From positions 1 through 45,642 of the forward strand of contig JALEXS010000036.1 in NCBI GenBank assembly GCA_022780025.1: 45,642 bases of DNA, written 5' to 3'. Shown here piece by piece: positions 15,132 to 31,021 of the stretch (its first letter is position 1; each line of letters opens with the position of its first letter). The stretch comes from Mollicutes bacterium. GTDB lineage: Bacteria > Bacillota_I > Bacilli_A > RFN20 > CAG-826. The notes below the pieces were generated by a model. That model was not told the origin of the DNA, ran no database searches, and worked only from the letters and a program-made list of their open reading frames with translations. The position numbers were made by a program, and so were the translations under genes.

Positions 15132-17996
15132 TTAACCTTGATATGGGTTACGTTTTGTGTGTTTAACTTCAATATAACTTGATGAAGTTAATGTATCACT
15201 ACCACTAACAAATTGCATATCATAGTTAATTTGGAATGTAACTTTTGTACCAGTAATAATCTTGTCACTATTATCAGCATTAGTTGCATCATATTTGATT
15301 TTAAATGTAATAGTACCAGCATCACTATCTGCACCAGTAACTACTGCATCATTAACTAAATATGTAGCATAAGCAGTTTCAGATTGACTCTTATTATATT
15401 GGACGAAGACATAAATTCCATCATCACTATTAATAGCAACTTTTACATCTTTAGAACCACTAAGAATACTAGCTTTTGTCCAAGAAATAACTACATCATA
15501 AGATTTATCTTCTGAATTAAATTCCATCTTACTAACTTTTAAAGTAAATGGAGCAACGATTTGACCTTTAGAATCAATTGAAGTACCACTATTAGCAGCA
15601 GTAAATAAACTATCAAATGACCAAGTTTTACCTTCATAAACTAATGTATTATCAATGGTATCAGTTGGAACGCCCCAGTTAAGAGTAAATCCACTACTAT
15701 CATCACTCTTTAAAACTTCTAAGAAGTTTAATGGGTTTAAAGCATTACCAGAAATAGAACCAAATCCTAAATCGAAGTTACCAACTTGTAAATGTTTACT
15801 ATAAACATCTTCATAGTTACTAGTACCATCATGATTTACGACATCTAATTTAAATTTACCACCACTAACGGCGTTATCATTAAATGCACTTTCAATGTAT
15901 TCTTCAATCTTAGCACCATAGTTTTTAGTATCATCAGTATTCATCCAATAAATATCGATTGTTTCGTGATTTTTATTTGGATTAGTTAAGTCATAACTTC
16001 CTGCAGCAACACATTCTTGAAGAGCTTTTTTAAAGTGATTAATTGCAGCATCTTTATCATAACCATAAGTTTCTGGGAATCTAGTAGCTAAATTAGCTTT
16101 ATGATAAACTGTATCGTTATAAGATAAACCTGCTTCTGGATCATATAAATAAGCATCACCGAAGTAATCTTGTGAAGGAATTGTACCTAAACTTTCAGCA
16201 TATTCTTTTCTATTAATACATTCATTTAAACCTCTTAAGAAATTCTTATTAGACATAAGAGCTTTAACGGTGTATTTAACACTATTTGCTTTCTTTTTAA
16301 ATACTTTTTCATAGTGAGCATCCCATTGTGCTTGAGTTGCACTATTAACATTAAGTTTAAATGTAGAATCACCTAAAGTTTCATGTTTTCTAGGATCACT
16401 AGCATATTTTTCAAGTTGACCTTGAGGAATTGAAGAAGTATCAATTACTCCTTGTTCAAACAAATTTAAGACAGTTTGTTCATCTGCTCCTGCTTTAATA
16501 AAGCAGTGAATTCCAGGAATCTTATATCTAGATTTAATTGATTCATCATTATCTTTATAAATGTTATCGATATATTTATCATTCTTTTTAAAGACAATTT
16601 CATTTTGATCACTGTTCCAGCTTTCAAGCATATAAGGCCCCAAGCAAAGAATATTATCAACAACAGTTCTATTATGTTTACTATCGTTAGATCCGTAATA
16701 TGTCATACCACCGATTTCAGTAACAAAATCTTTTGGGAATGGCATTGTAAGATTACCAGCTAAACTATATTTAGCATAGAATGTTGTAGTTGATTTAGCT
16801 AATGTAAATACTAAAGTATCTTTTGTTCCTTCTTTAACTTTAATACCAACATTTAACTTTTCCCATAATTCATCATCAACACCACCATCACTTAAGTTAT
16901 AGTAAGCATTAGCACCAGCTAAAGTACCATCACTTGTAATAGAAGTCATTTCAGCACCACGGGATAAATTATTTTTCTTAGTTAATAATTGTTTATAAGC
17001 GTTGATATAATCTTCAATTTCAACTGGTCTACCATCATATCCTTTACCAGTAGAAGCATCATATTTTCCTAATTTTGTAGATGTTGTTCTATAAACTAAT
17101 CCACTATTTTCATATGTTTTAACTTTAACTTCAAATTGAGTAGCAAAGCCACTAGCATTAGCATTAGTTGGAACTGGATTTTCACTAATTGCTAAACTTG
17201 GATACCATTCATAACCAGTTTTAGTCTTATTCATTTTAGTTGACCATAAACCAGTAGAAATATAACCATATAAATCACCAGTAACACTACCTTGAGAATT
17301 CAAGTAATTAATATTACTTGGTTTAGTTGAAAGTAATGAGTGATAATATGACTTCCATTCAGTATTTTGTGAAGCATTAGCAAGTTCAGCAGGTTGAGTA
17401 ATTTCACCATCTGTTAAATTACCATAACCATAACCTGGAATATATTTATCAGCACCAGTTTTAACACGTGGATTATATAAAACATATCCACCATTTTGGA
17501 ATAAAGTAATACCCATTAAGGAATTATCTAAAGCCCAACCTTCAAGTTTTCCAATAATTTCAGCTTTTTCTTCATAAGATTTAGCTTGGAAATTATAACC
17601 ACCACTAGCTTGAGATGCACTTTCTTCTACTTTAATAGTAATTTTTTTACTAATACCACCATAAGTAGCTGTACAAGTAATAATTGCTTCACCAACACCA
17701 TTAGCAGTAATTTGACCATTTACTGGATTAACAGTAACGATACTAGGAGCACTTGAAACATATTCAAATTCTTTAGTAGCATTAGATGGGCTAATTTCCA
17801 TTGGAACTACAGAATTAATTTCTCCTTTATACATTAAATTATTACTAACACCAGCTTGTAAAGTGAAATCCTTAACATCTACTTTTTGAGTAGGTGATGG
17901 TGGAGTTGGTGTATCAGGGGTTTTTCGACAACTAGTAGCACCAAACGTGACTAAGCATAGAGTTGCAAATCCTAGTACAAACTTACCTTTTCTCAT
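15132..17996 (-). CDS. oppA: Oligopeptide-binding lipoprotein (SBP family 5) with N-terminal Big_2 domain and C-terminal extension
   Basis: Lipobox ATSC; LGPYMLESW...IVFKKNDKY, NKNFLRGL, GNFDLG family-5-like motifs; PSNAT...SSAPSIVTV...GVGEAIIT Big_2 motif; first gene of the opp operon. Confidence 0.85.
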   Translation of the reverse strand: MRKGKFVLGFATLCLVTFGATSCRKTPDTPTPPSPTQKVDVKDFTLQAGVSNNLMYKGEINSVVPMEISPSNATKEFEYVSSAPSIVTVNPVNGQITANGVGEAIITCTATYGGISKKITIKVEESASQASGGYNFQAKSYEEKAEIIGKLEGWALDNSLMGITLFQNGGYVLYNPRVKTGADKYIPGYGYGNLTDGEITQPAELANASQNTEWKSYYHSLLSTKPSNINYLNSQGSVTGDLYGYISTGLWSTKMNKTKTGYEWYPSLAISENPVPTNANASGFATQFEVKVKTYENSGLVYRTTSTKLGKYDASTGKGYDGRPVEIEDYINAYKQLLTKKNNLSRGAEMTSITSDGTLAGANAYYNLSDGGVDDELWEKLNVGIKVKEGTKDTLVFTLAKSTTTFYAKYSLAGNLTMPFPKDFVTEIGGMTYYGSNDSKHNRTVVDNILCLGPYMLESWNSDQNEIVFKKNDKYIDNIYKDNDESIKSRYKIPGIHCFIKAGADEQTVLNLFEQGVIDTSSIPQGQLEKYASDPRKHETLGDSTFKLNVNSATQAQWDAHYEKVFKKKANSVKYTVKALMSNKNFLRGLNECINRKEYAESLGTIPSQDYFGDAYLYDPEAGLSYNDTVYHKANLATRFPETYGYDKDAAINHFKKALQECVAAGSYDLTNPNKNHETIDIYWMNTDDTKNYGAKIEEYIESAFNDNAVSGGKFKLDVVNHDGTSNYEDVYSKHLQVGNFDLGFGSISGNALNPLNFLEVLKSDDSSGFTLNWGVPTDTIDNTLVYEGKTWSFDSLFTAANSGTSIDSKGQIVAPFTLKVSKMEFNSEDKSYDVVISWTKASILSGSKDVKVAINSDDGIYVFVQYNKSQSETAYATYLVNDAVVTGADSDAGTITFKIKYDATNADNSDKIITGTKVTFQINYDMQFVSGSDTLTSSSYIEVKHTKRNPYQG

Positions 17997-18150
17997 AATT
18001 TTTACCTCCTATAATAAAAATAAACAAAAATATTTCATTCTATTTATGCTTTGTAAATATATAACTTTTTAAGTTATATTTTTAAATATGAAATATCTAT
18101 TAATAAAAAATTAATAAATATTCAATAGTAATGATTATATCACACTTTTT

Positions 18151-18537
18151 TTATATACAAAAATATAAAATTAACGCAATTAATAAAAAAATAAAAGAAA
18201 TAAATATATATCCAAGGGGTGAAAGTTTATTTTCTTTACGATTTTTTTGCTTTTTTTCTTTATATTCATAAAGATCTTTATACTTTTTTTCTTTCTTAAT
18301 ACTTAATGAATATGGGATTACACTAAATCCATAACTAATAGAATCAAAAAATCCTTCATTATTAACATAAGATAATAAACCAATAATAAATACAAAAAAT
18401 CCAGCTAAAAATAATCCATCACAAGCGATAGCTAAATTCATATTAAATCTTATTAGATAATAAATTAAAAAGAATATAATTCCGATAACTAATCCAATAA
18501 GAGCACTAAATAAAATAACTTTTAATTTATTCTTCAT
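18151..18537 (-). CDS. Small membrane protein, DUF3899-like
   Basis: Three hydrophobic segments and GFFDSISYGF motif; position just upstream of oppA fits this family. Confidence 0.7.
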   Translation of the reverse strand: MKNKLKVILFSALIGLVIGIIFFLIYYLIRFNMNLAIACDGLFLAGFFVFIIGLLSYVNNEGFFDSISYGFSVIPYSLSIKKEKKYKDLYEYKEKKQKNRKENKLSPLGYIFISFIFLLIALILYFCI

Positions 18538-18557
18538 TTTTTACTTTTTAATAACAA

Positions 18558-18581
18558 TAAGGAGCTCAAACGAGCTCCTTA
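18558..18581 (-). terminator. Hairpin after the protease gene
   Basis: Perfect stem TAAGGAGCTC-AAAC-GAGCTCCTTA. Confidence 0.75.
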
Positions 18582-18603
18582 ATTATAACTTAATTTAAAC
18601 TAA

Positions 18604-21600
18604 TTATTTAGTTTTTTTCTTTTTTCTAATAGCTAATGTTGTAGCTAAACCACCAAGAGCTAAACTAGATAAGACAATTGAACTAGCAATAACGCTTCCG
18701 CCACAACCTTTTTTACCAGTTGAGTAACTGCTACTTGCTTGACCAACAATCTTAAATTGAGCATCTCTTAATCTAAATGAAATAGTTTGACCATCACTAC
18801 TTAAAGTGTAATTAGTGATTTCTGGAGTAAGTCCACTAGCTAAAATTCTATAAACTTTAAATCCAGCTTTGAAATCTTTAACACTAACTGTAACTATTTT
18901 ACTTGATTTAGATAAACTAATTGTTTGACCATTAGCATCTAATAAAGTTTCACTATAAGTTCTAGTTAATGTAGATCCTTCTAATTTATCAGTAATTTCT
19001 TCAGTTAATGAATAACCAGGAGTTAAGTTACTATCATTGAATAATACGCCACCTTTAGAAAGATTATTGACATTAAATAAGTATTTATTACTACCATAAG
19101 CAGCATCAACAGCTTCTAAATAAACCTTTCCATCTGGACTATTTTCTTTAATTTCACTTAATTTAACTTCAGCATAGTAACTTCCATCACTGACTTTTGT
19201 AAATTTACCATCTCCAATAAATCCACCATTGAAGCTAGCACTATATAAGTAATCTTCTTTGAAGTAAACTCTTAAATATTCAGTTCCTTTTACTTTAGTA
19301 ATTTCTACTTTAGTAATTTCTGGAGATTCACTATCAATAATAATTTTAACTTCTTTAGTAAATGTTTTTGTTTCACCAAATTTACCAGTTACACTTCCTT
19401 GATAAGTGAATTTCATTCTTAATGTGTATTCACCACTATCAAGCATTTCACTTCCACCTGCAGTTTTTGTTAATGGAATAAATGCATGAGCTCTATGAGC
19501 AATAAGATTTCCAAGCCAGCTAGCTCCAGCAAATGATTTTGCTAAGCCATCAGTAGAAGTACTAAATAATGGATCATAGAATCTTGGGTGATTTCTATTA
19601 CCACTAGCATCAGCTCCTAAAACATCAAGAGCATAATCTTTACCATCAGGTCCAATTAATTCAATATTTGAATTATTAATTGCTCTATTAACATAAAGTT
19701 GAATGAATAATCCACTTGTAGCACCACTAGCACCAACATAAAGTTTATTACCATCTACTTTATTAATAGGAGTTGTAATTTTCTTAATATTACTATTATT
19801 AAGCCACATTTGTTGCATATTAGTTAAGAATGCAGATTCTTTATAAATATCATTAATATTAATAGCGCCAATATATGAACCATAATCTGCTTCAACTAAA
19901 GATAATCTCTTAGCTAAAGTATTTAAGATATCACTACCATAGATTTTGCCTTCTTCTTTTTCAAAATCAAATGGTTCGACTGGTTCTTGAGCAAAATAAT
20001 CACCATAGAATCCCATATAAGGAATATTTAAATCAGTTAATTCAGTTTTAGATGTATCAACTGGTGATAAATATACATATCCTTCTAAATAAGTTCCGTT
20101 AGGGAATTTTTCTTCAATTGCAGCTTTTTCTTCAGTAGTTAAGCTAGTAGAAACATTAATTGTAGTTTCTCCATTACCTTTAATAACTACTTCATCTAAA
20201 TCAACTTTCTTAATTAATTTATCTTCAATTGATTGGAATTCTTTTCCCATATATTCTGGGAATTCTGGATCATTACCAGGTTGAACTTCTTCAGTATAAG
20301 TAACAGTATCTGGTTTTAAAACAAAGATTGAAGCTTTATATTTAACGTCACTAGTAAGTTCACTATGAGCTTTAAATGAGAATTTAATATTACCTTGAGC
20401 AATATCTTCATTATTATAAAGTTCAACTTTAGCTTTCTTTTCAGTTGTTCCTTCTAAATAAATCTTAGATTTAAGAGCTTCACCGACATCAACCATACCA
20501 GACCCACTTCTTCTAGGAGAATATAATGAATTAATACCTTCATCACTATCTTTACTTAAATCGACATAGCCTGTTTTACTACTTGTAACTTTAGCAGTAG
20601 ACATAGTTCTCATTGGAATAGTATCTTTATAGGCTTTAGTTTCTTCTTTAGTTCCAGTATTATTTTCACTTATTAATAAAGCAACAGCACCACTATAGTT
20701 AGGAGCACTCATACTAGTACCACTTAAATATTTATAAGCTGTTTTATCTTTAATAAATTCATAAGTTGTATAATCAGTTTTATCACCTGGAACTGGTCCT
20801 CTAATAGCACTACCTGGAGCAGTAATATCAGGTTTAATTCTTAAATCATAAGTTGCACCATCAGTAGAGAATTCACTCATTTTACCAACATTAGCATTAG
20901 CTCTATCGGTATTAGCAGCAATAGAAAGTACTTTATTAGATGCATTCTTTAAATTATTACGATCTTTTTGTAAAACCATTGCAACAGGAACTGTAATAGA
21001 TTCAACAAATTTAGAGAAATCCATTCTCATATTGAAATCTGTAGCACCTGGATCATTATTAACAATAATTACACCAGCTGCTCCATAAGTAATAGCATTA
21101 ATAATTTTGGTAGTAAAAGCAACACCACCACCTCTATCAACAACACAAATCTTATTAGCTAAAGGTCTAGCATCACTTCCTTCAGGGAAAGTTTTTTCAA
21201 AATCAGCAGTTTCACCAAATCCATCAATATAAACATATTCAATTTCAGTACCGATTTCATCAACTAATTTTGAGAAAGGTAAATCTTCATTTAAAGAATC
21301 ATTTCTTTCTTTAGTAGCTTGATCATCATAACTTACAGCATTACTTCCAACAATAAATGCTTTATCATAGTGTTGAATTTCAAGGTTACCACTACCAATA
21401 GTCATAACATCTTCACTATTTGCATAACTTCCTAAAGTACCATTATCAACAAAATCTTTTAAATAATTAGCATAAGGACCCATTGAATTATATAATTGAC
21501 GTCCGTTATTTCCAGCACTAACACTACAAATAGTTCCGTTTTCTTTTAATTTCTTAAATACTTTAAATGATTCACTCTTTCCGTCAAAATCATCTAAATC

Positions 21601-22659
21601 TTGGCCTAAAGACATATTTAAGACATCAACGTTAAGAGTTAAAGCATCATTTAATGCTTTTAAAATAACACTATCATTAGCACCAGTTGATGGAACAACA
21701 CTATTACTAACATCAATTGATAAAGGAACATTATCAGTAAAAACCTTCATTAAAGCAAGTTGAGCATCAGGTGCTACGCCTTGATAAGTAGGATCATTTC
21801 CAGCAATAATACCAGCAACGTGAGTACCATGTTCACTATAAGGTGAATAAGCATCAAAATCTGGAACATATTCAATTGAAGAATAGCTTGTATATTTTGT
21901 TTCTTTACCATCTTTTCTTGTATAATAAGCAATTACTTCGCCACTATCATCATTTTCAGTATAAACTGTACCACCATAATCATAGGCAAATGGTATTTTA
22001 CTATTTATATAAGTTGAGTGAGTTGTATCACTTTTAGCATAGAAACTATCACCAGCATTATTAATTAAAGTAGTAATTTCATCTTCAGTATATTTAACTT
22101 TAGATGCATCTAATGGTTGGAAAGCATTATGAGCAGTATAAAAACCACTATCTAATACAGCAACTAAAGTGCCTGCACCTTTATTAGATGAAGTAGGTAC
22201 ATTCATTGTATCTAAACTGTTATTAGAAACTGTACCAGTTCCACTACTACCACTATCTAAAGTAACTGATTCATTAATTGCATTATAATCAGCACCTTCA
22301 ATCTCACTATTTGTCATATCAGCAAAACGATATACCTTATCTTCAGTAACACTTTCAACTAAAGGCATATTTTCAATGACTGAGACTTTATCTTCATTAA
22401 CTCTTAATAACATTGCGTTAGTAGCTTTTGTGTAATTTTCAACAAATTCATAATTAAAACCAATGTAATTATGTAAAGCTTTTCTAAAAGCTTCTTGAGA
22501 AGCTTCAACATCACTTTCACTATTACTAAAAGGATCAACATTTAAAGAAACAATAATTGTTTTATTTAATGGATCTTTTGTTACTTTATTATAATCAGCT
22601 GAACTAATTGTAAAACTTAAAGCACCAAGAGTTAACATCATTAATCCTATTTTTTTCAT
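18604..22659 (-). CDS. Cell-envelope S8 serine protease (lactocepin/C5a-peptidase-like) with PA and Fn3-like domains and C-terminal anchor
   Basis: Catalytic motifs VAVLDSG, HGTHVAG, SGTSMSAP; SAGN oxyanion motif; KPDITAPG; PA insert (VVDRGG...GAAGVII); signal peptide; C-terminal TM plus basic tail. Confidence 0.93.
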   Translation of the reverse strand: MKKIGLMMLTLGALSFTISSADYNKVTKDPLNKTIIVSLNVDPFSNSESDVEASQEAFRKALHNYIGFNYEFVENYTKATNAMLLRVNEDKVSVIENMPLVESVTEDKVYRFADMTNSEIEGADYNAINESVTLDSGSSGTGTVSNNSLDTMNVPTSSNKGAGTLVAVLDSGFYTAHNAFQPLDASKVKYTEDEITTLINNAGDSFYAKSDTTHSTYINSKIPFAYDYGGTVYTENDDSGEVIAYYTRKDGKETKYTSYSSIEYVPDFDAYSPYSEHGTHVAGIIAGNDPTYQGVAPDAQLALMKVFTDNVPLSIDVSNSVVPSTGANDSVILKALNDALTLNVDVLNMSLGQDLDDFDGKSESFKVFKKLKENGTICSVSAGNNGRQLYNSMGPYANYLKDFVDNGTLGSYANSEDVMTIGSGNLEIQHYDKAFIVGSNAVSYDDQATKERNDSLNEDLPFSKLVDEIGTEIEYVYIDGFGETADFEKTFPEGSDARPLANKICVVDRGGGVAFTTKIINAITYGAAGVIIVNNDPGATDFNMRMDFSKFVESITVPVAMVLQKDRNNLKNASNKVLSIAANTDRANANVGKMSEFSTDGATYDLRIKPDITAPGSAIRGPVPGDKTDYTTYEFIKDKTAYKYLSGTSMSAPNYSGAVALLISENNTGTKEETKAYKDTIPMRTMSTAKVTSSKTGYVDLSKDSDEGINSLYSPRRSGSGMVDVGEALKSKIYLEGTTEKKAKVELYNNEDIAQGNIKFSFKAHSELTSDVKYKASIFVLKPDTVTYTEEVQPGNDPEFPEYMGKEFQSIEDKLIKKVDLDEVVIKGNGETTINVSTSLTTEEKAAIEEKFPNGTYLEGYVYLSPVDTSKTELTDLNIPYMGFYGDYFAQEPVEPFDFEKEEGKIYGSDILNTLAKRLSLVEADYGSYIGAININDIYKESAFLTNMQQMWLNNSNIKKITTPINKVDGNKLYVGASGATSGLFIQLYVNRAINNSNIELIGPDGKDYALDVLGADASGNRNHPRFYDPLFSTSTDGLAKSFAGASWLGNLIAHRAHAFIPLTKTAGGSEMLDSGEYTLRMKFTYQGSVTGKFGETKTFTKEVKIIIDSESPEITKVEITKVKGTEYLRVYFKEDYLYSASFNGGFIGDGKFTKVSDGSYYAEVKLSEIKENSPDGKVYLEAVDAAYGSNKYLFNVNNLSKGGVLFNDSNLTPGYSLTEEITDKLEGSTLTRTYSETLLDANGQTISLSKSSKIVTVSVKDFKAGFKVYRILASGLTPEITNYTLSSDGQTISFRLRDAQFKIVGQASSSYSTGKKGCGGSVIASSIVLSSLALGGLATTLAIRKKKKTK

Positions 22660-22679
22660 AAATTCTCCTTTCTTTTCAT

Positions 22680-22708
22680 TGAAAGACCATCCTAAAGGAT
22701 GGCTTTCA
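22680..22708 (-). terminator. Hairpin after the 22729..24192 gene
   Basis: TGAAAG(A)CCATCC-TAAA-GGATGGCTTTCA. Confidence 0.65.
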
Positions 22709-22728
22709 TATTGTATTTAATATATTAC

Positions 22729-24192
22729 TTATTTAGCAGTTGAATGTAAATAATTATATACTGGTTCAAATTCTACACCAAAGTGAGAATAGATAACTTC
22801 ATCATTTGGAATAATATAGCCTTCACCAATTAAATAATTTGTAAAGACTACATCGTCACTAATATCTTCTTCAGTTCCATTTTTGTTATAGTCATAAATT
22901 ACACCAGTTTCAAGATATCCTGTTAAAAGTAAAATAATATCAGTTGAATCTAAAGCAGTTCCAAAGCCAAAGCAATTTCCATAATCTATTGCGGCATATC
23001 CTTTATTACCTTTATTATCATATTCACCATAACTTCCGCCTAAAAAACTATAATTTGTGAAAGCAGAACCTGATTGTAAATATCCTAAACCAAATTTTGT
23101 TGCTTGATATTGTAAATATTGTTGAGCTTCCATACCAAGTTGTTTTAATTGAGCAGCAGTTGCTAAACGTTGAGATTTTAATTCATAATTAGTTCCTTGA
23201 GTAGCAGCTACTTGATATAAATCGCCTGCACCATTTACAGCAAAGAAACTATATTGATCTGTTGCAGTTGTTTCACCTTTAATTACATATCCCCAATATT
23301 CATTTGAATAATAAACATCAGCTTTATTTCCACCAGTTAATCCAACACCTCTAACTGAATATGTATTGCTATTAACCATTTCAGTAAATTTTTTAAAATC
23401 ATCGTGAGCTTCCATTTTTTTACTTTTAATAGTTTCGAGGAATTTAGTATTACTAAAATCTAAATTTGGTAAATATTCAGTTGATTCAGGCAAGAATGTT
23501 GTAGCAAATGATCCGCTAATTTTATATGTGCTATATTTTCCACCTAAACTAATTTCTAAAGATAACAATCCATTATTAGCTTTAAATGTCATATCAGTAA
23601 TATAACTTGTGAATGAACCAAGTCTTAACATACCTGATAAATATATCATTTCATAATATGCAGCTTCATTAGTAAATTCACCATCAGCATTAACAGATAA
23701 ATCTAATGAATATTCTTTAACATCAAAAGTACCTTCAGTTTTTAATTTTTGAGCTTTTTTTCCTTCAACAAATGTATTAAAGAAATCATTAAACGTTATA
23801 GCAAATTCATCATAGCTTTTTGCAACTGTTTGATCTACATAACCTGCACTATAAATACTTCCTTTTTCTTCAAAGAAGCTTCCAACTCCAAGGCCTTCTA
23901 AATTAACTAAACCGCCAGTTGTGGTATTAGCAGTTTCAGCATTTGTAGTTGCAGTATAAACACAAGCATCTTTACTAAATTCGACAGCTGAATTATAAGT
24001 AATTTCTTTTAATGAAGAATAAGTTCCAGCAGTTTCAATTCTAAGTTCACTAGCTTCAGCTAAAGTTTTCATTGCACTATGAACAGTAGTTGTATCTTCT
24101 TTTGGTTTTTCTGGTTCTTTTCCATTTTTACAGCTTGTAACACCAAGAACGAGTGCACTTAAACTTAATGCATATAACAATGTTTTTTTCAT
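22729..24192 (-). CDS. Lipoprotein of unknown function (two-domain, related to 26647..28308)
   Basis: Lipobox VTSC; SD AAGGAG; NSNTYSV...YYSNEYW and terminal YSHFG...VYNYL motifs. Confidence 0.85.
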   Translation of the reverse strand: MKKTLLYALSLSALVLGVTSCKNGKEPEKPKEDTTTVHSAMKTLAEASELRIETAGTYSSLKEITYNSAVEFSKDACVYTATTNAETANTTTGGLVNLEGLGVGSFFEEKGSIYSAGYVDQTVAKSYDEFAITFNDFFNTFVEGKKAQKLKTEGTFDVKEYSLDLSVNADGEFTNEAAYYEMIYLSGMLRLGSFTSYITDMTFKANNGLLSLEISLGGKYSTYKISGSFATTFLPESTEYLPNLDFSNTKFLETIKSKKMEAHDDFKKFTEMVNSNTYSVRGVGLTGGNKADVYYSNEYWGYVIKGETTATDQYSFFAVNGAGDLYQVAATQGTNYELKSQRLATAAQLKQLGMEAQQYLQYQATKFGLGYLQSGSAFTNYSFLGGSYGEYDNKGNKGYAAIDYGNCFGFGTALDSTDIILLLTGYLETGVIYDYNKNGTEEDISDDVVFTNYLIGEGYIIPNDEVIYSHFGVEFEPVYNYLHSTAK

Positions 24193-24290
24193 TTTTTAAT
24201 TCTCCTTTTTTAATGGTTATAAAAAAGTTATTTTCGCCATGAATAATAACTTGCCATATTTTACTTTTATTATAAATAAAATAATTAGAA

Positions 24291-24375
24291 AAAAAGCCTT
24301 CTTAATATTTAATTAATAAAATACTAATATATACGATTATATCAATATTTTATGCTATATTAAGATAGGCTTTTT
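24291..24375. repeat. Long imperfect inverted repeat (~85 nt)
   Basis: AAAAAGCCT-TCTTAATAT...ATAAAATA...TATTTTAT...ATATTAAGA-T-AGGCTTTTT. Confidence 0.7.
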
Positions 24376-24387
24376 ATAATAAATTAG

Positions 24388-26634
24388 CTAGATTTTTCTT
24401 TCTCTATATATACCAATATAGTTATGAGCAAAGCTATTTATGAAATAAAGTATTAATCCAGATTCATTTTTATAGAATGTTTGAGTGATAACTCCATCAC
24501 TATTATAGTTATAATCATAGACTGGCCAATCACTATTATTTTCAAATGCTTTTAAGATATTAGCATTTGCTAAAGCTGCATTATTCATAGCAGTATTTCC
24601 ATTTGATGCATGATATATAATATGAATTAATACACGATCACTACTACCATCATAATATTCACTAACTTCAAAATCTTTTTCATCTTGAATACCAGTTACT
24701 ACTGGAAGAGTTACTTCTTCTTGGAAACGATAATTAAGTAATTCTTGAACTTTGGAATATTCAGTAAGTCCGCTATAAGTCTTTTTATAACTAATAACCA
24801 TTACTAAATAAGAAATACCATATGTTTTATTAGTTGAATATAAGAATTGAATTGTAAATCTACCATCTTTTGAAGTCGCTTTATAAACTCCAGAAGTACT
24901 ATTTAAAGTAACAGTCCATCCAGCTTGTTCTAATTTTTCTTTATATTCACTAGATATATCATTACTCATTTCAATTTGTAATTGATAACTTGTTTCTGTA
25001 ACAGTTACTTTTCCACTACTAGCATCTTGGGTCTTATATTTTCCAAAATAATAACTTGTTCCATTAGTAATTTCAGGAATAGTTGGGATTTCTCCTCTAG
25101 TATTTTGATTTAAAAATGCATTTATATCATCTTTTGGGAATGAGGTAGCAAATTGAGCTAAGCCAACACTACAAGCGATTACACCTTTATTAACATTCTT
25201 ATATACAGGATATTCTTGTAAGAATGTAGTTTTAGAAAAATAAGTTAGGATAATGAAAGTTGTATCATTAGGATTAATTAAATAAGCATGTCCATTACCA
25301 ACTGATTTTGATTTCCATCCTTTTCTAACTAATTCTAAGAAATATGTTTCTAAATCATCATTACCTAAATTAATCATAAAATAATTTAGACCAATTCCAT
25401 TACGACTATTCATGTTATAGCCAGCTTTATAGAAGATTGTGTCATAAATTCTATTTTCTAATCTAGGAACACTTTCAAGTAATCCACCAAAATAAGTTTC
25501 TGATAAATCAACTGAACTATATTGGTAAGAAATATCACTATTAAGTAATGAATAAAGTAATACTTGAATACTTTTATTTTTAGTAACATATTGCATTTGA
25601 ATTCTAAATGTACCTAAAGGATCCATTGCTCCTTTACCATCACTATTTGAGAAATTAAATGTTGTTAAACCTAACTTTTTCTCTAAGTAATTTGCAAGAT
25701 AATTGACACCATTTGATGTATCATCTTCACCTACTTTTTTAGTAGTATCTGGCTTATAATATATAACACTTGCTGGTAATCCATTATTAGTTAAATAGGT
25801 TCTAGCACTCACTATATTCTTGCCAGAATCTTTTAAAACCCCGTCAAACGAAGATATTTTTGTTAAATTTACATAACGACCTTCACTAGCAAATATATGT
25901 ACAGGGAGCTTATCTTTTTCTTTATATTCTTTATCATCTAGATAACTTACTTTGACATAAAATTCTTCATTATTTGTTTCATCAACACCGAAATTTAAAT
26001 TGAATTCATAATTAGGATTTATTGCTTCATAATATTCATTCTTTTTAACTTCGTTAATTTTATAGCCAGCTTTTGTTAATTTATCTTTATAAACAAGAAC
26101 ATTAGAATAATCTAGATTTTCACCATAAATATAAAATGATCCATCACTACTTATTTTATGTGTATAAACTGTACTATAGAAAAATGGAACACAATCTGTG
26201 ACATAATAATTGCCTAAATAACTTCTAAGTCCAGCGACTTTTCCCATCTCTTCTTCATCACCATTACTAACACTATTATCTAATATAACTTGATTAACCC
26301 AATCACCAGTTTGTTCAGTTAATATCCAACCTGCATAAACGTCAATTGAAGCATTAACAATACTATTTTTATAGAAAACATTTTCTTTAGTTAAATTGGT
26401 TGCACTACTTTTATCTTTATACCGATTAACAAAAGTATATTCACCATTAACTCTACTAGGACTAAATAATTCAGTTATCTTACTACCTTTTTTATAAGTC
26501 TCTACTTTAGTAGTATTTAATTCATCTTCAAGATGATAAGTAATAGTAATATCTTTATTTTCATCATTACAACTTACTAATGAAAAACTACTTATAATTA
26601 ATGATAACCCTGCTAAAATAAATTTATTTTTCAT
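24388..26634 (-). CDS. Lipoprotein with N-terminal InlB B-repeat and repeated YxxxLxxxG[WY] modules
   Basis: Lipobox LVSC; ITYH...PSRVNGEYTFVN[CGG]YKD...DVYAGW matches the Listeria-Bacteroides repeat; YKDKLTKAGY, YFLELVRKGW, YKEKLEQAGW. Confidence 0.85.
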   Translation of the reverse strand: MKNKFILAGLSLIISSFSLVSCNDENKDITITYHLEDELNTTKVETYKKGSKITELFSPSRVNGEYTFVNRYKDKSSATNLTKENVFYKNSIVNASIDVYAGWILTEQTGDWVNQVILDNSVSNGDEEEMGKVAGLRSYLGNYYVTDCVPFFYSTVYTHKISSDGSFYIYGENLDYSNVLVYKDKLTKAGYKINEVKKNEYYEAINPNYEFNLNFGVDETNNEEFYVKVSYLDDKEYKEKDKLPVHIFASEGRYVNLTKISSFDGVLKDSGKNIVSARTYLTNNGLPASVIYYKPDTTKKVGEDDTSNGVNYLANYLEKKLGLTTFNFSNSDGKGAMDPLGTFRIQMQYVTKNKSIQVLLYSLLNSDISYQYSSVDLSETYFGGLLESVPRLENRIYDTIFYKAGYNMNSRNGIGLNYFMINLGNDDLETYFLELVRKGWKSKSVGNGHAYLINPNDTTFIILTYFSKTTFLQEYPVYKNVNKGVIACSVGLAQFATSFPKDDINAFLNQNTRGEIPTIPEITNGTSYYFGKYKTQDASSGKVTVTETSYQLQIEMSNDISSEYKEKLEQAGWTVTLNSTSGVYKATSKDGRFTIQFLYSTNKTYGISYLVMVISYKKTYSGLTEYSKVQELLNYRFQEEVTLPVVTGIQDEKDFEVSEYYDGSSDRVLIHIIYHASNGNTAMNNAALANANILKAFENNSDWPVYDYNYNSDGVITQTFYKNESGLILYFINSFAHNYIGIYRERKI

Positions 26635-26646
26635 ATTTCAATCTCC

Positions 26647-28308
26647 TTATTTAGCTAAATAAGCCTCAACACTTGCATAACTTGTAGTTCCAAAATTATC
26701 AAGAGTATGGTCTAAATAAATAAGACCTAAATAATTAAATAAATACCAAATATCTATTTTAGTAATATTATTAGCATCGTCTTTAGTTATTTTAAAAGCA
26801 CCACCATAACTTGCTTCTTCTAGTCCAAATCCATAATAATTAGCGAATTGTTCTGTAAAAGATGTATCTCTAGTTATATAAGCATCATTAGGTTCACTAT
26901 AAATCATAGTGTCAATGTAATTTAATACTTTTAATGATTTAGGATATCTTAAAAAGTCAGTTACACCAGCATCATATTCACTAAAATCACCTACTTTATC
27001 ACTAACTACAACTTGATCTTTATCATCTAAAGTAAATTTATAAATACCATTATATTCACCCTTATTTCTTAAGTTAATATAACCTTCAGTTTTTAAAGTA
27101 TTATCTTCTTCTAATCCTTCACTAGTAGGAATAGATAAATAATATTCATTAGTATAATATTCATTAGTTTTAGTAATAATTATAGCATTACCATCACCAT
27201 CTTTAACAATATTACCTTCACTATCATGCTTATTAGTAACTCTAATACCATGGAAATTATTATTTAATAATAATTCTTTAGCTTTAGATAATTCACTAGG
27301 TACTTCTTGAGCACTACCACCATTATTAACATAATCTTTAATTTCAGTTAAACTAACATTATCAAAATTATCAATTGTTCCATATAAATAACCTAATAAT
27401 TGTTCATAACAATCTAAAGTATAATCAATCGATGATATTGAATTATTTTCATAATTAATAGTTAAATAAATACAACTAATATAAGGAGCAATCTTTTCAA
27501 TAAATCTACTAGCAACTGCAAAAGATTTTTTAATCTCTAAATCAGTGATCATATATTGATGCTCACCAATTTTCATATTCTTTTGATAAGTTTCTATATT
27601 AGGAACATCTTTAAAAGTTGGTATTTGATTATAAATACTATTACTATAATCACCTTTATTATTAGTACAAAATTCATATGGAGTAATAGTTTTATCACTA
27701 TTTTTATAATATTTAAATACTTTATTATTATTATCTAAAGCATATCCATATGAATTACTATCATCATCAAGATGAGTTTCATAATAATATTGACCATCAA
27801 AATATCTATCTAATTTAAAAGTTGATCCTATTATAGTAGATTCTTGTAAAGCATGATAATTAGACTTAGTTTTAATTAAGTCAATTGCTGATTTAAGTTC
27901 AGTAGAGTTCTTTTCATCAAGGACAACTCCTGAATTACATAAAATTGGACAATAAGCTATTTTATTACCATCTTCTGTTGTAATTTTAGCAACTGTTTTA
28001 CCTATTTTATTAGCTCTAATAACATTATTATCAAGCAAAGTTGCAACACTTTCATCAATAATTTCAATCTTAACTTTTTGATTAGTAGCATTACTTGGTA
28101 ATATTTTATATCTAAGTTGAGCCTCTCCTAAATAAGCTAAAGTAATTGAATCATCTAAGAAATAAACGGCTTCTACTTTAACTTCTTTAGGAGGAACAGG
28201 AGTAGGTTCTTCAATATCTGGATCAATAATAGGAGGCAATGAATTAGAACTATTACAAGAAGCTAATGATAAAGTTAATAAACTTAATAATAATATATTC
28301 TTTTTCAT
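26647..28308 (-). CDS. Lipoprotein with Big_2 domain and internally duplicated domain
   Basis: Lipobox LASC; ILPSNATNQKV...GKTVAKITTEDG; repeat ends TIDNFDNVSLTEIKDYV and TLDNFGTTSYASVEAYL. Confidence 0.85.
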   Translation of the reverse strand: MKKNILLLSLLTLSLASCNSSNSLPPIIDPDIEEPTPVPPKEVKVEAVYFLDDSITLAYLGEAQLRYKILPSNATNQKVKIEIIDESVATLLDNNVIRANKIGKTVAKITTEDGNKIAYCPILCNSGVVLDEKNSTELKSAIDLIKTKSNYHALQESTIIGSTFKLDRYFDGQYYYETHLDDDSNSYGYALDNNNKVFKYYKNSDKTITPYEFCTNNKGDYSNSIYNQIPTFKDVPNIETYQKNMKIGEHQYMITDLEIKKSFAVASRFIEKIAPYISCIYLTINYENNSISSIDYTLDCYEQLLGYLYGTIDNFDNVSLTEIKDYVNNGGSAQEVPSELSKAKELLLNNNFHGIRVTNKHDSEGNIVKDGDGNAIIITKTNEYYTNEYYLSIPTSEGLEEDNTLKTEGYINLRNKGEYNGIYKFTLDDKDQVVVSDKVGDFSEYDAGVTDFLRYPKSLKVLNYIDTMIYSEPNDAYITRDTSFTEQFANYYGFGLEEASYGGAFKITKDDANNITKIDIWYLFNYLGLIYLDHTLDNFGTTSYASVEAYLAK

Positions 28309-28327
28309 AATCTACATTCCCTCCTAA

Positions 28328-31021
28328 TTAAAATGTTTTTTGTTCATAATTGAAATGCATGAAATCATTAGTTGGATTTTCAGTACTATACTTTTGGAAA
28401 ATAAGCTTTAATGTAGCATCACTTATTTTAATTAAAACACCACCATGATAATCATCATATGTTCCAGTATAATAAATTTTTCTTACTGTAGATCCTTTAA
28501 ATGAATCACTACTAACAGATAAATAAGTTCTACTTAAAACAGGATTATTAACAAATTTATTAAATAATAATTCTTTTAAAGCAGTAGTATCTTTGAATGC
28601 TCTAGTAGAAATAGTGTATAATTCTTCGTTAAATGAAACTTTATTTAAATAAGCGTTTCCTAAGAAAGCTTGAGAATAAATTGTTAAGGTTTTTTCAGGA
28701 ACATTATAGACTGAATCAGTCTTATTTGCAGGATAAGCAGCTAAATAACTATAAGTTGGATCTTTAGTAGCTAATTCAAATAAAACACCATCAACTGCTT
28801 TATATTTAGTATTTTCACTACCTACTGTAATAGATGTTAATCTCTTACAACCATAGAACATATAATCAGTTTCTCTAGATGAACTACTATTAACTTTAAA
28901 TGTAGTAACACTACTAGGAATATTAATAGTTTCTAATGATTCATCACCATAAAAGCATCCATAATCGACAGTTTTAAGACCTTCTGGTAATGTAATTTCT
29001 TTTAAACTTGTATATCCAGATAAAGATTTACTAGCTAATGATGTTAATTTTGAAGGTAATGTTAACGAAGTAACTGCACTATTACCATTAATCATGTAAG
29101 CTCCAATAGAAGTTAATCCATCAGGAAGTTTTAATGTCTTTAATTTTGCATTATTACATATAGCATAATTTCCTAATTTAGTAATTGAATCAGGCAAAAT
29201 TGCTTCAGTAATACCAGTATTCTTAAAAGCATTATCTCCGATACTAGTAATTCCATCATAGAAAGTAAAACCAGTAAATTTTTCACAATTTTCAAAAGTA
29301 CTAGCTGGTATATCTAAAATTGTAGTAGGCCAAGAAACAGTTGTTAATTCATTACAACCATTAAATACACCGTCATCAAGACTCGTTACAGCATGAATAT
29401 CAACACTTTCAAGATGAGAACCACTAAATGCATTTTCTGAAATTGCAGTTAAAGAAGTAGGTGCAGTATAAGTTTTTTCTTCTTTCATTGGAGGATAACA
29501 TAATAATTTAGATTTATCTTTATTATAAAGAATGCCTTCACTAGTTGAGAAATCAGCATTATCTTCACTAATTGTAATTTCTTTTAAAGCTTCATTACCT
29601 TTAATCGCATTAGGATCTAAGCCTTCATCATCATCTTTTGTAGATGTACCATTATCATTATAAGTTTTTAACGCTTTAGGTAAATTAATCTTAGTTAAAT
29701 TAGGATTACTACTTATAGCCATATTTCCTATATAAGTAACTGTATCTGGAATAGTTAATTCTGTTAAATAAGGTAAGCTTTGGAAACAAGAACCTTGAAT
29801 TCTTTCGAGCGCTTCAGGTAAAACAAATGATTTTAAATTATCGCAACTTGGAAACATTCTTTCGATAATTTTTATATTTTTAGGAAGTTTTACAGTTTCT
29901 AATGAAGTGCATTTAACAAATAAAGATTGTAATTTACCTTCTACTTTGCCTTTAGAATCAATACATCCCTTAATTGAATCAGGTAATGTAACTTTAACTA
30001 AACTTGAGCAACTGTTATATAAGTTCATACCAATATATTCAATACCTTCAGGTAAAGAACCATCTTCTAAGGATTTACAGTTATAGAAACAATTATATCC
30101 AATATCTTTTAAAGTTGATGGATAATGTAATGTATATAAAGATGTACAACTATAAAATGCAGTATTACCGATAGCAATGACACCTTCACTAATTTTAATT
30201 CTTTCAAGAGTTTGACTATTTTTAAAACAGTTATTACCAATTTTGGTTACTTTATAAGTTTCATTATTAGTAGGATTAACTACTTCAGTAGGTGTAATTA
30301 CAGCAGTACTAGTTCCTTTATATGTAGATAATGTAGCTTCTTTAGTTTCATCATCAAAAGTAACAGCAAAATCACCTTGTTCAGCAACTGTTAATGTTGG
30401 CATAACGTGAATTTTAATTTCATCAGTTAAAGTACCACATGTTGCAGTAATAATAACAAAACCATCACTTTCAGCAGTGACATTACCTTCTAAATCGATA
30501 GTTACATAACGATCATCATAACCTTCAATCTTTTTAATACCCCATGTTACTTCTTTATTTGTAGCATTTTCAGGTAAAACAGTTGCAGTTAATTTAAATG
30601 TATCACCAACTTCAACTTCTAAATTTTCTCCTTGATTAATAGTGATACTTTCTACTTCAATTGGAGCAACATTAATAACTATTGTATCTTCAAGTCCATC
30701 AACTGTTGCTTTTAAAGTGAGTGTACCACCTCCAGATGCAGTAAATTCACCTTGTTGAGAAATAGTACCAATTGTAGCAGGATCTGTAACTCCATCATCT
30801 ACAAAAGAAAATGCTACTTTTGAAGTAGTATCAGCTGGAGCAACTTCGACTTCAAATTTGTGTTTATCTCCTACTTTAAGAGTTAGACTATCGCCATCTT
30901 TGAAACTTATTGACGTCGCTTTGACTTCTTTTTGACAACTGGTCAAAGTATAAAAAGTTGTGGTAGATATCCCTAATCCTAAGATTAAAGAAGATAACCT
31001 TAAAATGTTAATTTTTTTCAT
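28328..31021 (-). CDS. BspA-type leucine-rich-repeat lipoprotein with two Big_2 domains
   Basis: Lipobox LTSC; ATVLPENATNKEVTW; many LxxIxLPxxLxxIGxxAF repeats; two [DE]G[IV]L[YF]...YP inserts. Confidence 0.92.
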   Translation of the reverse strand: MKKINILRLSSLILGLGISTTTFYTLTSCQKEVKATSISFKDGDSLTLKVGDKHKFEVEVAPADTTSKVAFSFVDDGVTDPATIGTISQQGEFTASGGGTLTLKATVDGLEDTIVINVAPIEVESITINQGENLEVEVGDTFKLTATVLPENATNKEVTWGIKKIEGYDDRYVTIDLEGNVTAESDGFVIITATCGTLTDEIKIHVMPTLTVAEQGDFAVTFDDETKEATLSTYKGTSTAVITPTEVVNPTNNETYKVTKIGNNCFKNSQTLERIKISEGVIAIGNTAFYSCTSLYTLHYPSTLKDIGYNCFYNCKSLEDGSLPEGIEYIGMNLYNSCSSLVKVTLPDSIKGCIDSKGKVEGKLQSLFVKCTSLETVKLPKNIKIIERMFPSCDNLKSFVLPEALERIQGSCFQSLPYLTELTIPDTVTYIGNMAISSNPNLTKINLPKALKTYNDNGTSTKDDDEGLDPNAIKGNEALKEITISEDNADFSTSEGILYNKDKSKLLCYPPMKEEKTYTAPTSLTAISENAFSGSHLESVDIHAVTSLDDGVFNGCNELTTVSWPTTILDIPASTFENCEKFTGFTFYDGITSIGDNAFKNTGITEAILPDSITKLGNYAICNNAKLKTLKLPDGLTSIGAYMINGNSAVTSLTLPSKLTSLASKSLSGYTSLKEITLPEGLKTVDYGCFYGDESLETINIPSSVTTFKVNSSSSRETDYMFYGCKRLTSITVGSENTKYKAVDGVLFELATKDPTYSYLAAYPANKTDSVYNVPEKTLTIYSQAFLGNAYLNKVSFNEELYTISTRAFKDTTALKELLFNKFVNNPVLSRTYLSVSSDSFKGSTVRKIYYTGTYDDYHGGVLIKISDATLKLIFQKYSTENPTNDFMHFNYEQKTF

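Follow-up and report, generated by a model that had tools for sequence, protein, structure and literature searches.

A gut bacterium of the genus Candidatus Onthovivens very probably decodes the codon CGG as tryptophan rather than arginine. The bacterium is represented here by the genome of a Mollicutes bacterium (GenBank assembly GCA_022780025.1, hereafter G000), and the window, meaning the whole stretch of DNA that was analysed, is positions 1 to 45,642 of its contig JALEXS010000036.1. On the minus strand of the window, codon 71 of a predicted surface lipoprotein gene (24388..26634) is CGG (26422..26424), which we read as Trp. A preliminary description of the window, made from its letters, had suggested from this codon that the organism decodes CGG as Trp, perhaps at a low-usage stage, and the genome as a whole bears out both parts of that suggestion. 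CGG=Trp was already predicted for the genus in 2021 (Shulgina and Eddy, PMC8629427); this is the precedent that the preliminary description cited, it concerns the same genus, and the present genome is one more member.

The genome comprises 1,427,138 bases in 82 contigs, with 26.0% G+C content (GC) and 94.7% completeness. In 1140 non-overlapping open reading frames (ORFs) of at least 100 amino acids, CGG occurs 47 times, or 1.09 times per 10,000 codons, against 2569 occurrences of TGG, which would make it 1.8% of Trp codons. The remaining Arg codons are AGA (9056), CGT (1985), AGG (492), CGA (456) and CGC (198).

We tabulated what each codon faces in reciprocal best hits between G000 and G023, the nearest sister genome without a transfer RNA with the anticodon CCG (tRNA(CCG)), using all 21 contigs of G023; at a mean identity of about 74%, this table is a substitute for Codetta and its Pfam columns. 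Here and below, G023, G032, G011 and G063 are other genomes of the genus. Among the 25 aligned CGG codons of G000, 21 face Trp, encoded by TGG in every case, and the other four face Phe, Met, Tyr and Arg, once each. For comparison, TGG codons of G000 face Trp at 1569 of 1723 positions, and Arg codons other than CGG do so at 4 of 9140 (AGA 1/6814, CGT 0/1582, CGA 0/310, CGC 0/143 and AGG 3/291). CGA, with Trp at none of its 310 positions, faces Arg at 202. A further 22 CGG sites have no orthologue in G023. Ten of these could be compared with a paralogue or a G011 homologue, and 12 have no homologue in the sets used; at the ten comparable sites Trp is found six times, Phe, Ile/Gly, Leu/Ala or Val at the other four, and Arg or Lys at none. 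The residue tabulation that the preliminary description had proposed thus yields 27 sites supporting Trp and a single Arg, at a codon of doubtful status discussed below.

Two of these sites lie where Trp is conserved well beyond the genus. In exonuclease III, codon 6 (CGG) faces the Trp of the motif MK(L/I)(I/T)SWNV(N/D)G in all three solved structures listed, one of them vertebrate APEX1, and the CGG codon is common to G000, G032 and G063. In glycyl-tRNA synthetase (GlyRS), codon 233 (CGG) faces Trp in both solved relatives listed. A replicate of the analysis in G011, in which 1.05 Mb of about 1.3 Mb contain 53 CGG codons, gave a similar picture: against G023, 28 CGG codons align, with Trp opposite 19 of them, Phe opposite three and Arg opposite none; in the comparison with G000, 26 could be aligned and 20 face Trp, with one CGG shared. 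As a separate candidate, recoding of AGG, brought up by an unusual tRNA(CCU) in G000 and by three AGG codons opposite Trp, was tried and dropped, AGG facing Arg at 176 and Lys at 62 of 291 positions, with its three Trp sites in variable stretches.

These data bear on a first rival explanation, namely that the code is standard and that CGG, at codon 71 and elsewhere, reflects either ordinary Trp-to-Arg missense mutation (TGG>CGG) or, in a metagenome-assembled genome, errors of sequencing or consensus. Codon 71 is indeed private to G000, being TGG in the 95% identical G032 protein; seven of the eight CGG sites of G000 that were checked in G032, its closest relative, are TGG there, the eighth, in exonuclease III, being CGG; and a few real Trp-to-Arg changes do exist, in that three AGG codons and one AGA lie opposite TGG of G023. 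Slightly harmful Trp-to-Arg changes that had piled up would look like the seven unshared sites, but this reading is opposed by which sites are hit, by the asymmetry with G023 and by the tRNA. TGG of G023 lies opposite CGG of G000 21 times, whereas TGG of G000 lies opposite CGG of G023 once. CGG hits the exonuclease III Trp found in all solved relatives listed and falls in proteins that are 93–99% identical to their orthologues. It falls on an Arg column at only 1 of 25 positions, although the standard code would make any exchange between CGA and CGG silent. Finally, the same pattern recurs in G011, and the sole tRNA that reads CGG, described next, lacks A20 and carries G73. We consider missense or error highly improbable. 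The preliminary description had cautioned that one codon could not exclude a missense change, and in part this caution stands: judged by comparison with G032, codon 71 is a young T>C change. It is one of many, however, with 21 such changes in G000 against one in G023.

The decoder is a single-copy tRNA(CCG) gene outside the window, at G000:C55:26323-26396, identified by ARAGORN among 49 tRNAs of the genome. The set also includes tRNAs with the anticodons ACG, TCT and CCT and an Arg-type D-loop, tRNA-Trp(CCA) and tRNA-Gly(CCC). The tRNA(CCG) forms a full cloverleaf (65.4 bits against the Rfam tRNA model), with A1:U72, G2:C71 and G3:C70 in the acceptor stem, the discriminator G73, and an anticodon stem of five pairs closed by U31-G39. 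Its D-loop has seven bases, AGUGGUA, and position 20 is U. By contrast, the three Arg-type tRNAs have the D-loop sequence GGAUAG with A20, which PMC8629427 uses as a major identity element for arginyl-tRNA synthetase and which a canonical bacterial tRNA-Arg(CCG) would carry. The rule given in that paper for a provisional Trp acceptor is G73 and no A20, with A1:U72 or G1:U72 as support, and the tRNA(CCG) of G000 agrees with it throughout. A tRNA(CCG) with G73 and without A20 is also what the preliminary description had named as the decoder to look for. As to its descent, BLAST of this tRNA in relatives retrieved tRNA-Gly(CCC) genes, which have a look-alike D-arm and anticodon arm, but overall identity is 62–74% to Gly tRNAs and 66–73% to tRNA-Trp(CCA), so that it is no better to the former, and we make no claim on origin.

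Two observations concern other tRNA genes of G000. The tRNA(CCU) at G000:C79:37897-37975 is 79 nt long, has the discriminator U73 and is only 67% identical to tRNA(CCU) of G023, when most other tRNAs are 93–100% identical. A second small tRNA cluster at G000:C61:810-2203 (Thr-TGT, a 92-nt call as 'Ile-TAT', Gln, Leu, Lys and Asn) duplicates tRNAs found elsewhere in the genome and may be a mobile or phage-borne set.

The positions of the CGG codons, the features of the tRNA and the make-up of the tRNA set can be taken directly from sequence comparison, and they suggest a route by codon capture, as described for the clade. AT pressure, at 26% GC, would have made CGG very rare, with no tRNA(UCG) left to read it as Arg. 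The dedicated tRNA(CCG) with Trp identity features would read CGG by Watson–Crick pairing and would presumably be charged by tryptophanyl-tRNA synthetase, while CGU, CGC and CGA would stay Arg through tRNA-Arg(ACG), presumably with inosine at position 34 (I34). Residual Arg decoding at CGG would then be absent. TGG>CGG changes would now be synonymous and would come and go, codon 71 being one such young change.

In a second rival explanation, CGG is ambiguous or partly captured, being read mostly as Trp but to some extent also as Arg, or with stalling or near-cognate decoding. This would explain both the rarity of CGG and its fast turnover, and it is in keeping with the small share of CGG among Trp codons, with the youth of most CGG sites and with G023, which has no tRNA(CCG) and whose rare CGG codons face Arg or Lys. 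The authors of PMC8629427 likewise state, for the reassignments that they describe, that ambiguous translation cannot be excluded. However, no Arg tRNA able to read CGG was found in G000, CGG is kept at the exonuclease III Trp in three genomes, and AT pressure alone predicts rarity. We judge ambiguity unlikely, and it is the only one of the rival explanations whose dismissal calls for protein data.

A third explanation would leave the genetic code unchanged and turn CGG into UGG by C-to-U RNA editing. It would give the same pattern in DNA, and no observation speaks for it. We know of no C-to-U editing system of this kind in bacteria, which counts against it, as does the fact that at least 31 genomes of the genus have kept a well-formed, dedicated tRNA(CCG) that carries Trp features. 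The probability of editing is, in our view, close to negligible.

Against decoding of CGG as Trp stand the following points, in addition to the seven sites unshared with G032. All of the evidence comes from DNA. Genes were called crudely, as ORFs, rather than with a gene finder. ARAGORN found no tRNA(UCG) in G000, an absence that is not proven in an assembly 94.7% complete. The anticodon of a normal Trp tRNA has A36 and that of tRNA(CCG) has G36. In SecA, codon 142 (CGG) faces Gln in both structures of Bacillus subtilis SecA and faces Trp only within the genus. Lastly, there is the lone Arg case, codon 4 of an ORF on contig C14, which faces CGA (Arg) in G023. The true start of this ORF is doubtful, as an ATG stands at codon 23, where conservation begins, and codon 4 may be non-coding. 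The surrounding segment, G000:C14:218-290, lies ahead of a CNNM/CBS transporter gene; its G+C-rich start, GTG GAT CCG CGG, is kept as GTG GAC CCG CGA in G023 and is followed by 18 divergent codons. The segment may represent a leader or regulatory RNA rather than coding sequence.

In the window, the case can be followed at the level of a single residue. The frame around codon 71 reads GTT AAT CGG TAT AAA GAT on the minus strand, with CGG at 26424..26422, confirming the context GEYTFVN-CGG-YKD. By our own ORF set, the contig has one CGG and 62 TGG codons in 14,348 codons, in agreement with the earlier count by eye that had found no other in-frame CGG and only TGG at other Trp positions; counted in any frame, CGG trinucleotides number 24 on the plus strand and 43 on the minus strand. 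The lipoprotein, of 748 amino acids according to the ORF list and its translation, has no assigned function. Residues 1–22 (26569..26634, minus strand) read as a signal peptide ending in LVSC, which we take by eye from the translation to be a lipobox. Orthologues turned up in just two of the 59 other genomes of the genus, G032 (95% amino acid identity) and G023 (70%). In both, codon 71 is TGG and the context GEYTF(V/I)N-W-YKD is otherwise identical, so the Trp that had been called conserved is present in every orthologue found. The gene's five other Trp positions are encoded by TGG in each of the three genomes.

The choice of residue at codon 71 also changes what the protein resembles. Translated by table 11, the lipoprotein matches no Pfam or NCBIfam family, and with Arg at position 71 no Pfam repeat family is matched. 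When CGG is read as Trp, residues 30–88 (26371..26547, minus strand), which hold codon 71, match the Listeria-Bacteroides repeat family Flg_new (PF09479; E = 1.5e-5, 25.4 bits, slightly below the Pfam gathering cut-off of 27), a match that depends on this single residue. The InlB B-repeat, which we take to be a member of this family, was the domain proposed for the protein in the preliminary description. That assignment gains from the appearance of the match with Trp and its absence with Arg, and falls short in that the score remains under the cut-off; a Flg_new/InlB-type repeat is plausibly present.

The lipoprotein gene sits in a run of large surface proteins on the minus strand (window positions 15132-31021). 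The run includes a 954-amino-acid Big_2 protein, a 1351-amino-acid S8 subtilase with a PA domain, an 897-amino-acid protein with BspA-type leucine-rich repeats and Big_2, and two proteins of 487 and 553 amino acids that match no family. Beyond it lie parB, parA, rsmG and mnmG.

The genome lies, by sequence, inside the published reassigned clade, Candidatus Onthovivens, which is UBA4855 of order RFN20 in GTDB. First, among relatives represented by the 80 named loci of our scan with the neighbouring TsaD gene, loci 77–85% identical in TsaD include Candidatus Onthovivens sp., Candidatus Onthovivens merdipullorum, 'uncultured Mollicutes bacterium' and Bacillales bacterium UBA6877. Second, in a TsaD tree, built from a single gene by a quick method, G000 groups with locus L156 and G023 (support 97), and this group is nested in a clade of 25 rows (95). 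This tree used 67 of 82 rows, with 15 rows of Bacillus, Neobacillus and Mesobacillus dropped and two kept as the outgroup. The 40-row clade of the genus (97) also contains UBA6877 (locus L178), on a different branch (99). PMC8629427 lists UBA6877 in its source table (fig4-data1) as UBA4855 sp002451465, the Arg-decoding outgroup of a five-species 'Bacilli CGG->Trp clade', for which the paper gives a GC of 0.26–0.30, a CGG frequency of 0.1–2.5 per 10,000 and, in four species, tRNAs ACG and CCG present and UCG absent. The clade goes by the name Onthovivens in two papers of 2026, PMC13092985 and a preprint (bioRxiv 10.64898/2026.05.03.722492). When each locus is typed by the residues opposite its own CGG codons in G000, G023 or G011, 18 of the 80 are Trp-type and ten are Arg/Lys-type, the rest having no informative site; ten of the Trp-type loci lie in the 25-row clade, and more distant rows are Arg/Lys-type.

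Across the 60 species genomes of the genus in the collection searched, a pattern combining the anticodon loop YUCCGAA with a T arm matched 33, with four matches in 120 control strand scans; it replaced a narrower pattern that had matched seven. ARAGORN found tRNA(CCG) at 31 of the 32 loci examined, so that at least 31 of the 60 genomes carry it. All 31 copies have G73 and a short D-loop, and 25 have A1:U72, two G1-U72 and four G1:C72, while their stems are very diverse; the G011 copy is 85% identical to that of G000. The gene also differs in location. In G000 and G032, tRNA(CCG) follows directly on a small membrane ORF and precedes a JetABC (Wadjet) operon, whereas in G011 (C13:6335-6403) and G063 (C62, L288) it stands about 0.45 kb from tRNA-Gln(CUG). 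Of the 80 TsaD loci, only L156, which is 99% identical, has tRNA(CCG) at the G000 site, and L156 has TGG at the DUF402 site where G000 has CGG. The syntenic intergenic site of G023 (L107:16543-16828) contains no tRNA, nor was a remnant found there, the local alignment score of 15 being matched by 129 of 500 shuffles; either insertion in G000/G032 or deletion in G023 would account for this. The three genes right after tRNA(CCG) in G000 (G000:C55:26582-31816; L141:14583-19814) match JetA (E = 1.9e-57), JetB (6.4e-38) and JetC (1.2e-237) of the Wadjet anti-plasmid system and are followed by a fourth gene of 399 amino acids, the block being syntenic in G023.

The sister genome G023 presents the opposite usage of CGG. 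It has 41 tRNAs, among them neither CCG nor TCG, and also no tRNA-Gly(UCC), so that its tRNA set is incomplete. Of its CGG codons, ten align with G000 and face Arg four times, Lys three times and Gly, Trp and a gap once each; six align with G011 and face Arg (three), Lys (two) and Gln (one). This profile resembles that of the fifth clade species in PMC8629427, listed there without tRNA(CCG) and with the Codetta call '?'. By these alignments, the contrast between G023 and G000 could mean that the reassignment has been lost or reversed. Alongside this, four loci that lie among Trp-type relatives, L176 and L181 (both Candidatus Onthovivens sp.), L165 and L214, have CGG facing Arg or Lys at one or two sites each; these are either further species without the reassignment or cases of uninformative sites.

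The absence of tRNA(CCG) from G023 and its CGG codons facing Arg or Lys, the differing tRNA loci, the patchy and diverse tRNAs and the young CGG sites together raise the possibility that CGG=Trp in Onthovivens is labile rather than a fixed character of the clade, the tRNA gene being gained, moved or lost between close species. We put this forward as a conjecture that we would sooner doubt than assume. Tentatively, G023, the locus data and the apparent age of the sites also fit fast neutral turnover between TGG and CGG. If the code is indeed labile, species of one genus would present a natural case of a sense-codon reassignment undergoing reversal, or spreading through tRNA gene transfer. G000 and G032, with the tRNA, and G023, with none and the opposite CGG usage, offer a close set of genomes for studying the gain and loss of a captured codon.

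Sense-codon reassignments are very rare in bacteria and those published are all computational; an extra Onthovivens genome adds sites and tRNA data and no new principle. There is nevertheless a practical consequence. Annotation by table 11 would put Arg at 47 Trp positions of the proteome, some of them in enzyme cores (exonuclease III W6 and GlyRS W233), and the wrong table can hide domain matches, such as Flg_new in the window lipoprotein.

Among known systems, the closest is the Onthovivens/UBA4855 clade as described in PMC8629427. By its named relatives and the TsaD tree, G000 belongs to the same genus, and it shares the same codon with the same new meaning, the same tRNA pattern (ACG present, UCG absent, and CCG with G73 and without A20) and the combination of low GC with about one CGG per 10,000 codons. 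Differences lie in the size of the sample, 60 species genomes here against six species in the 2021 table, and in the tRNA site of G000, at which the sister G023 and, apart from L156, the TsaD loci of other relatives have no tRNA(CCG). Anaerococcus, an unrelated clostridial genus treated in the same paper, resembles G000 in its CGG-to-Trp prediction, low GC and tRNA(CCG) with Trp features; in Anaerococcus, however, CGG was too rare and the authors report finding no supporting conserved positions, against 27 supporting sites in G000. In Absconditabacteria, also described there, an Arg codon of the CGN box has likewise been captured by Trp, but CGA and CGG are both affected and UGA is Gly in addition, whereas CGA remains Arg in G000. 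Finally, in Mycoplasma capricolum (Oba et al. 1991, as cited in PMC8629427), an AT-rich relative among the Bacilli, CGG is unassigned and its decoder lost. This state is the supposed intermediate stage of codon capture, and it is G023 that resembles it, whereas G000 has a decoder and uses CGG.

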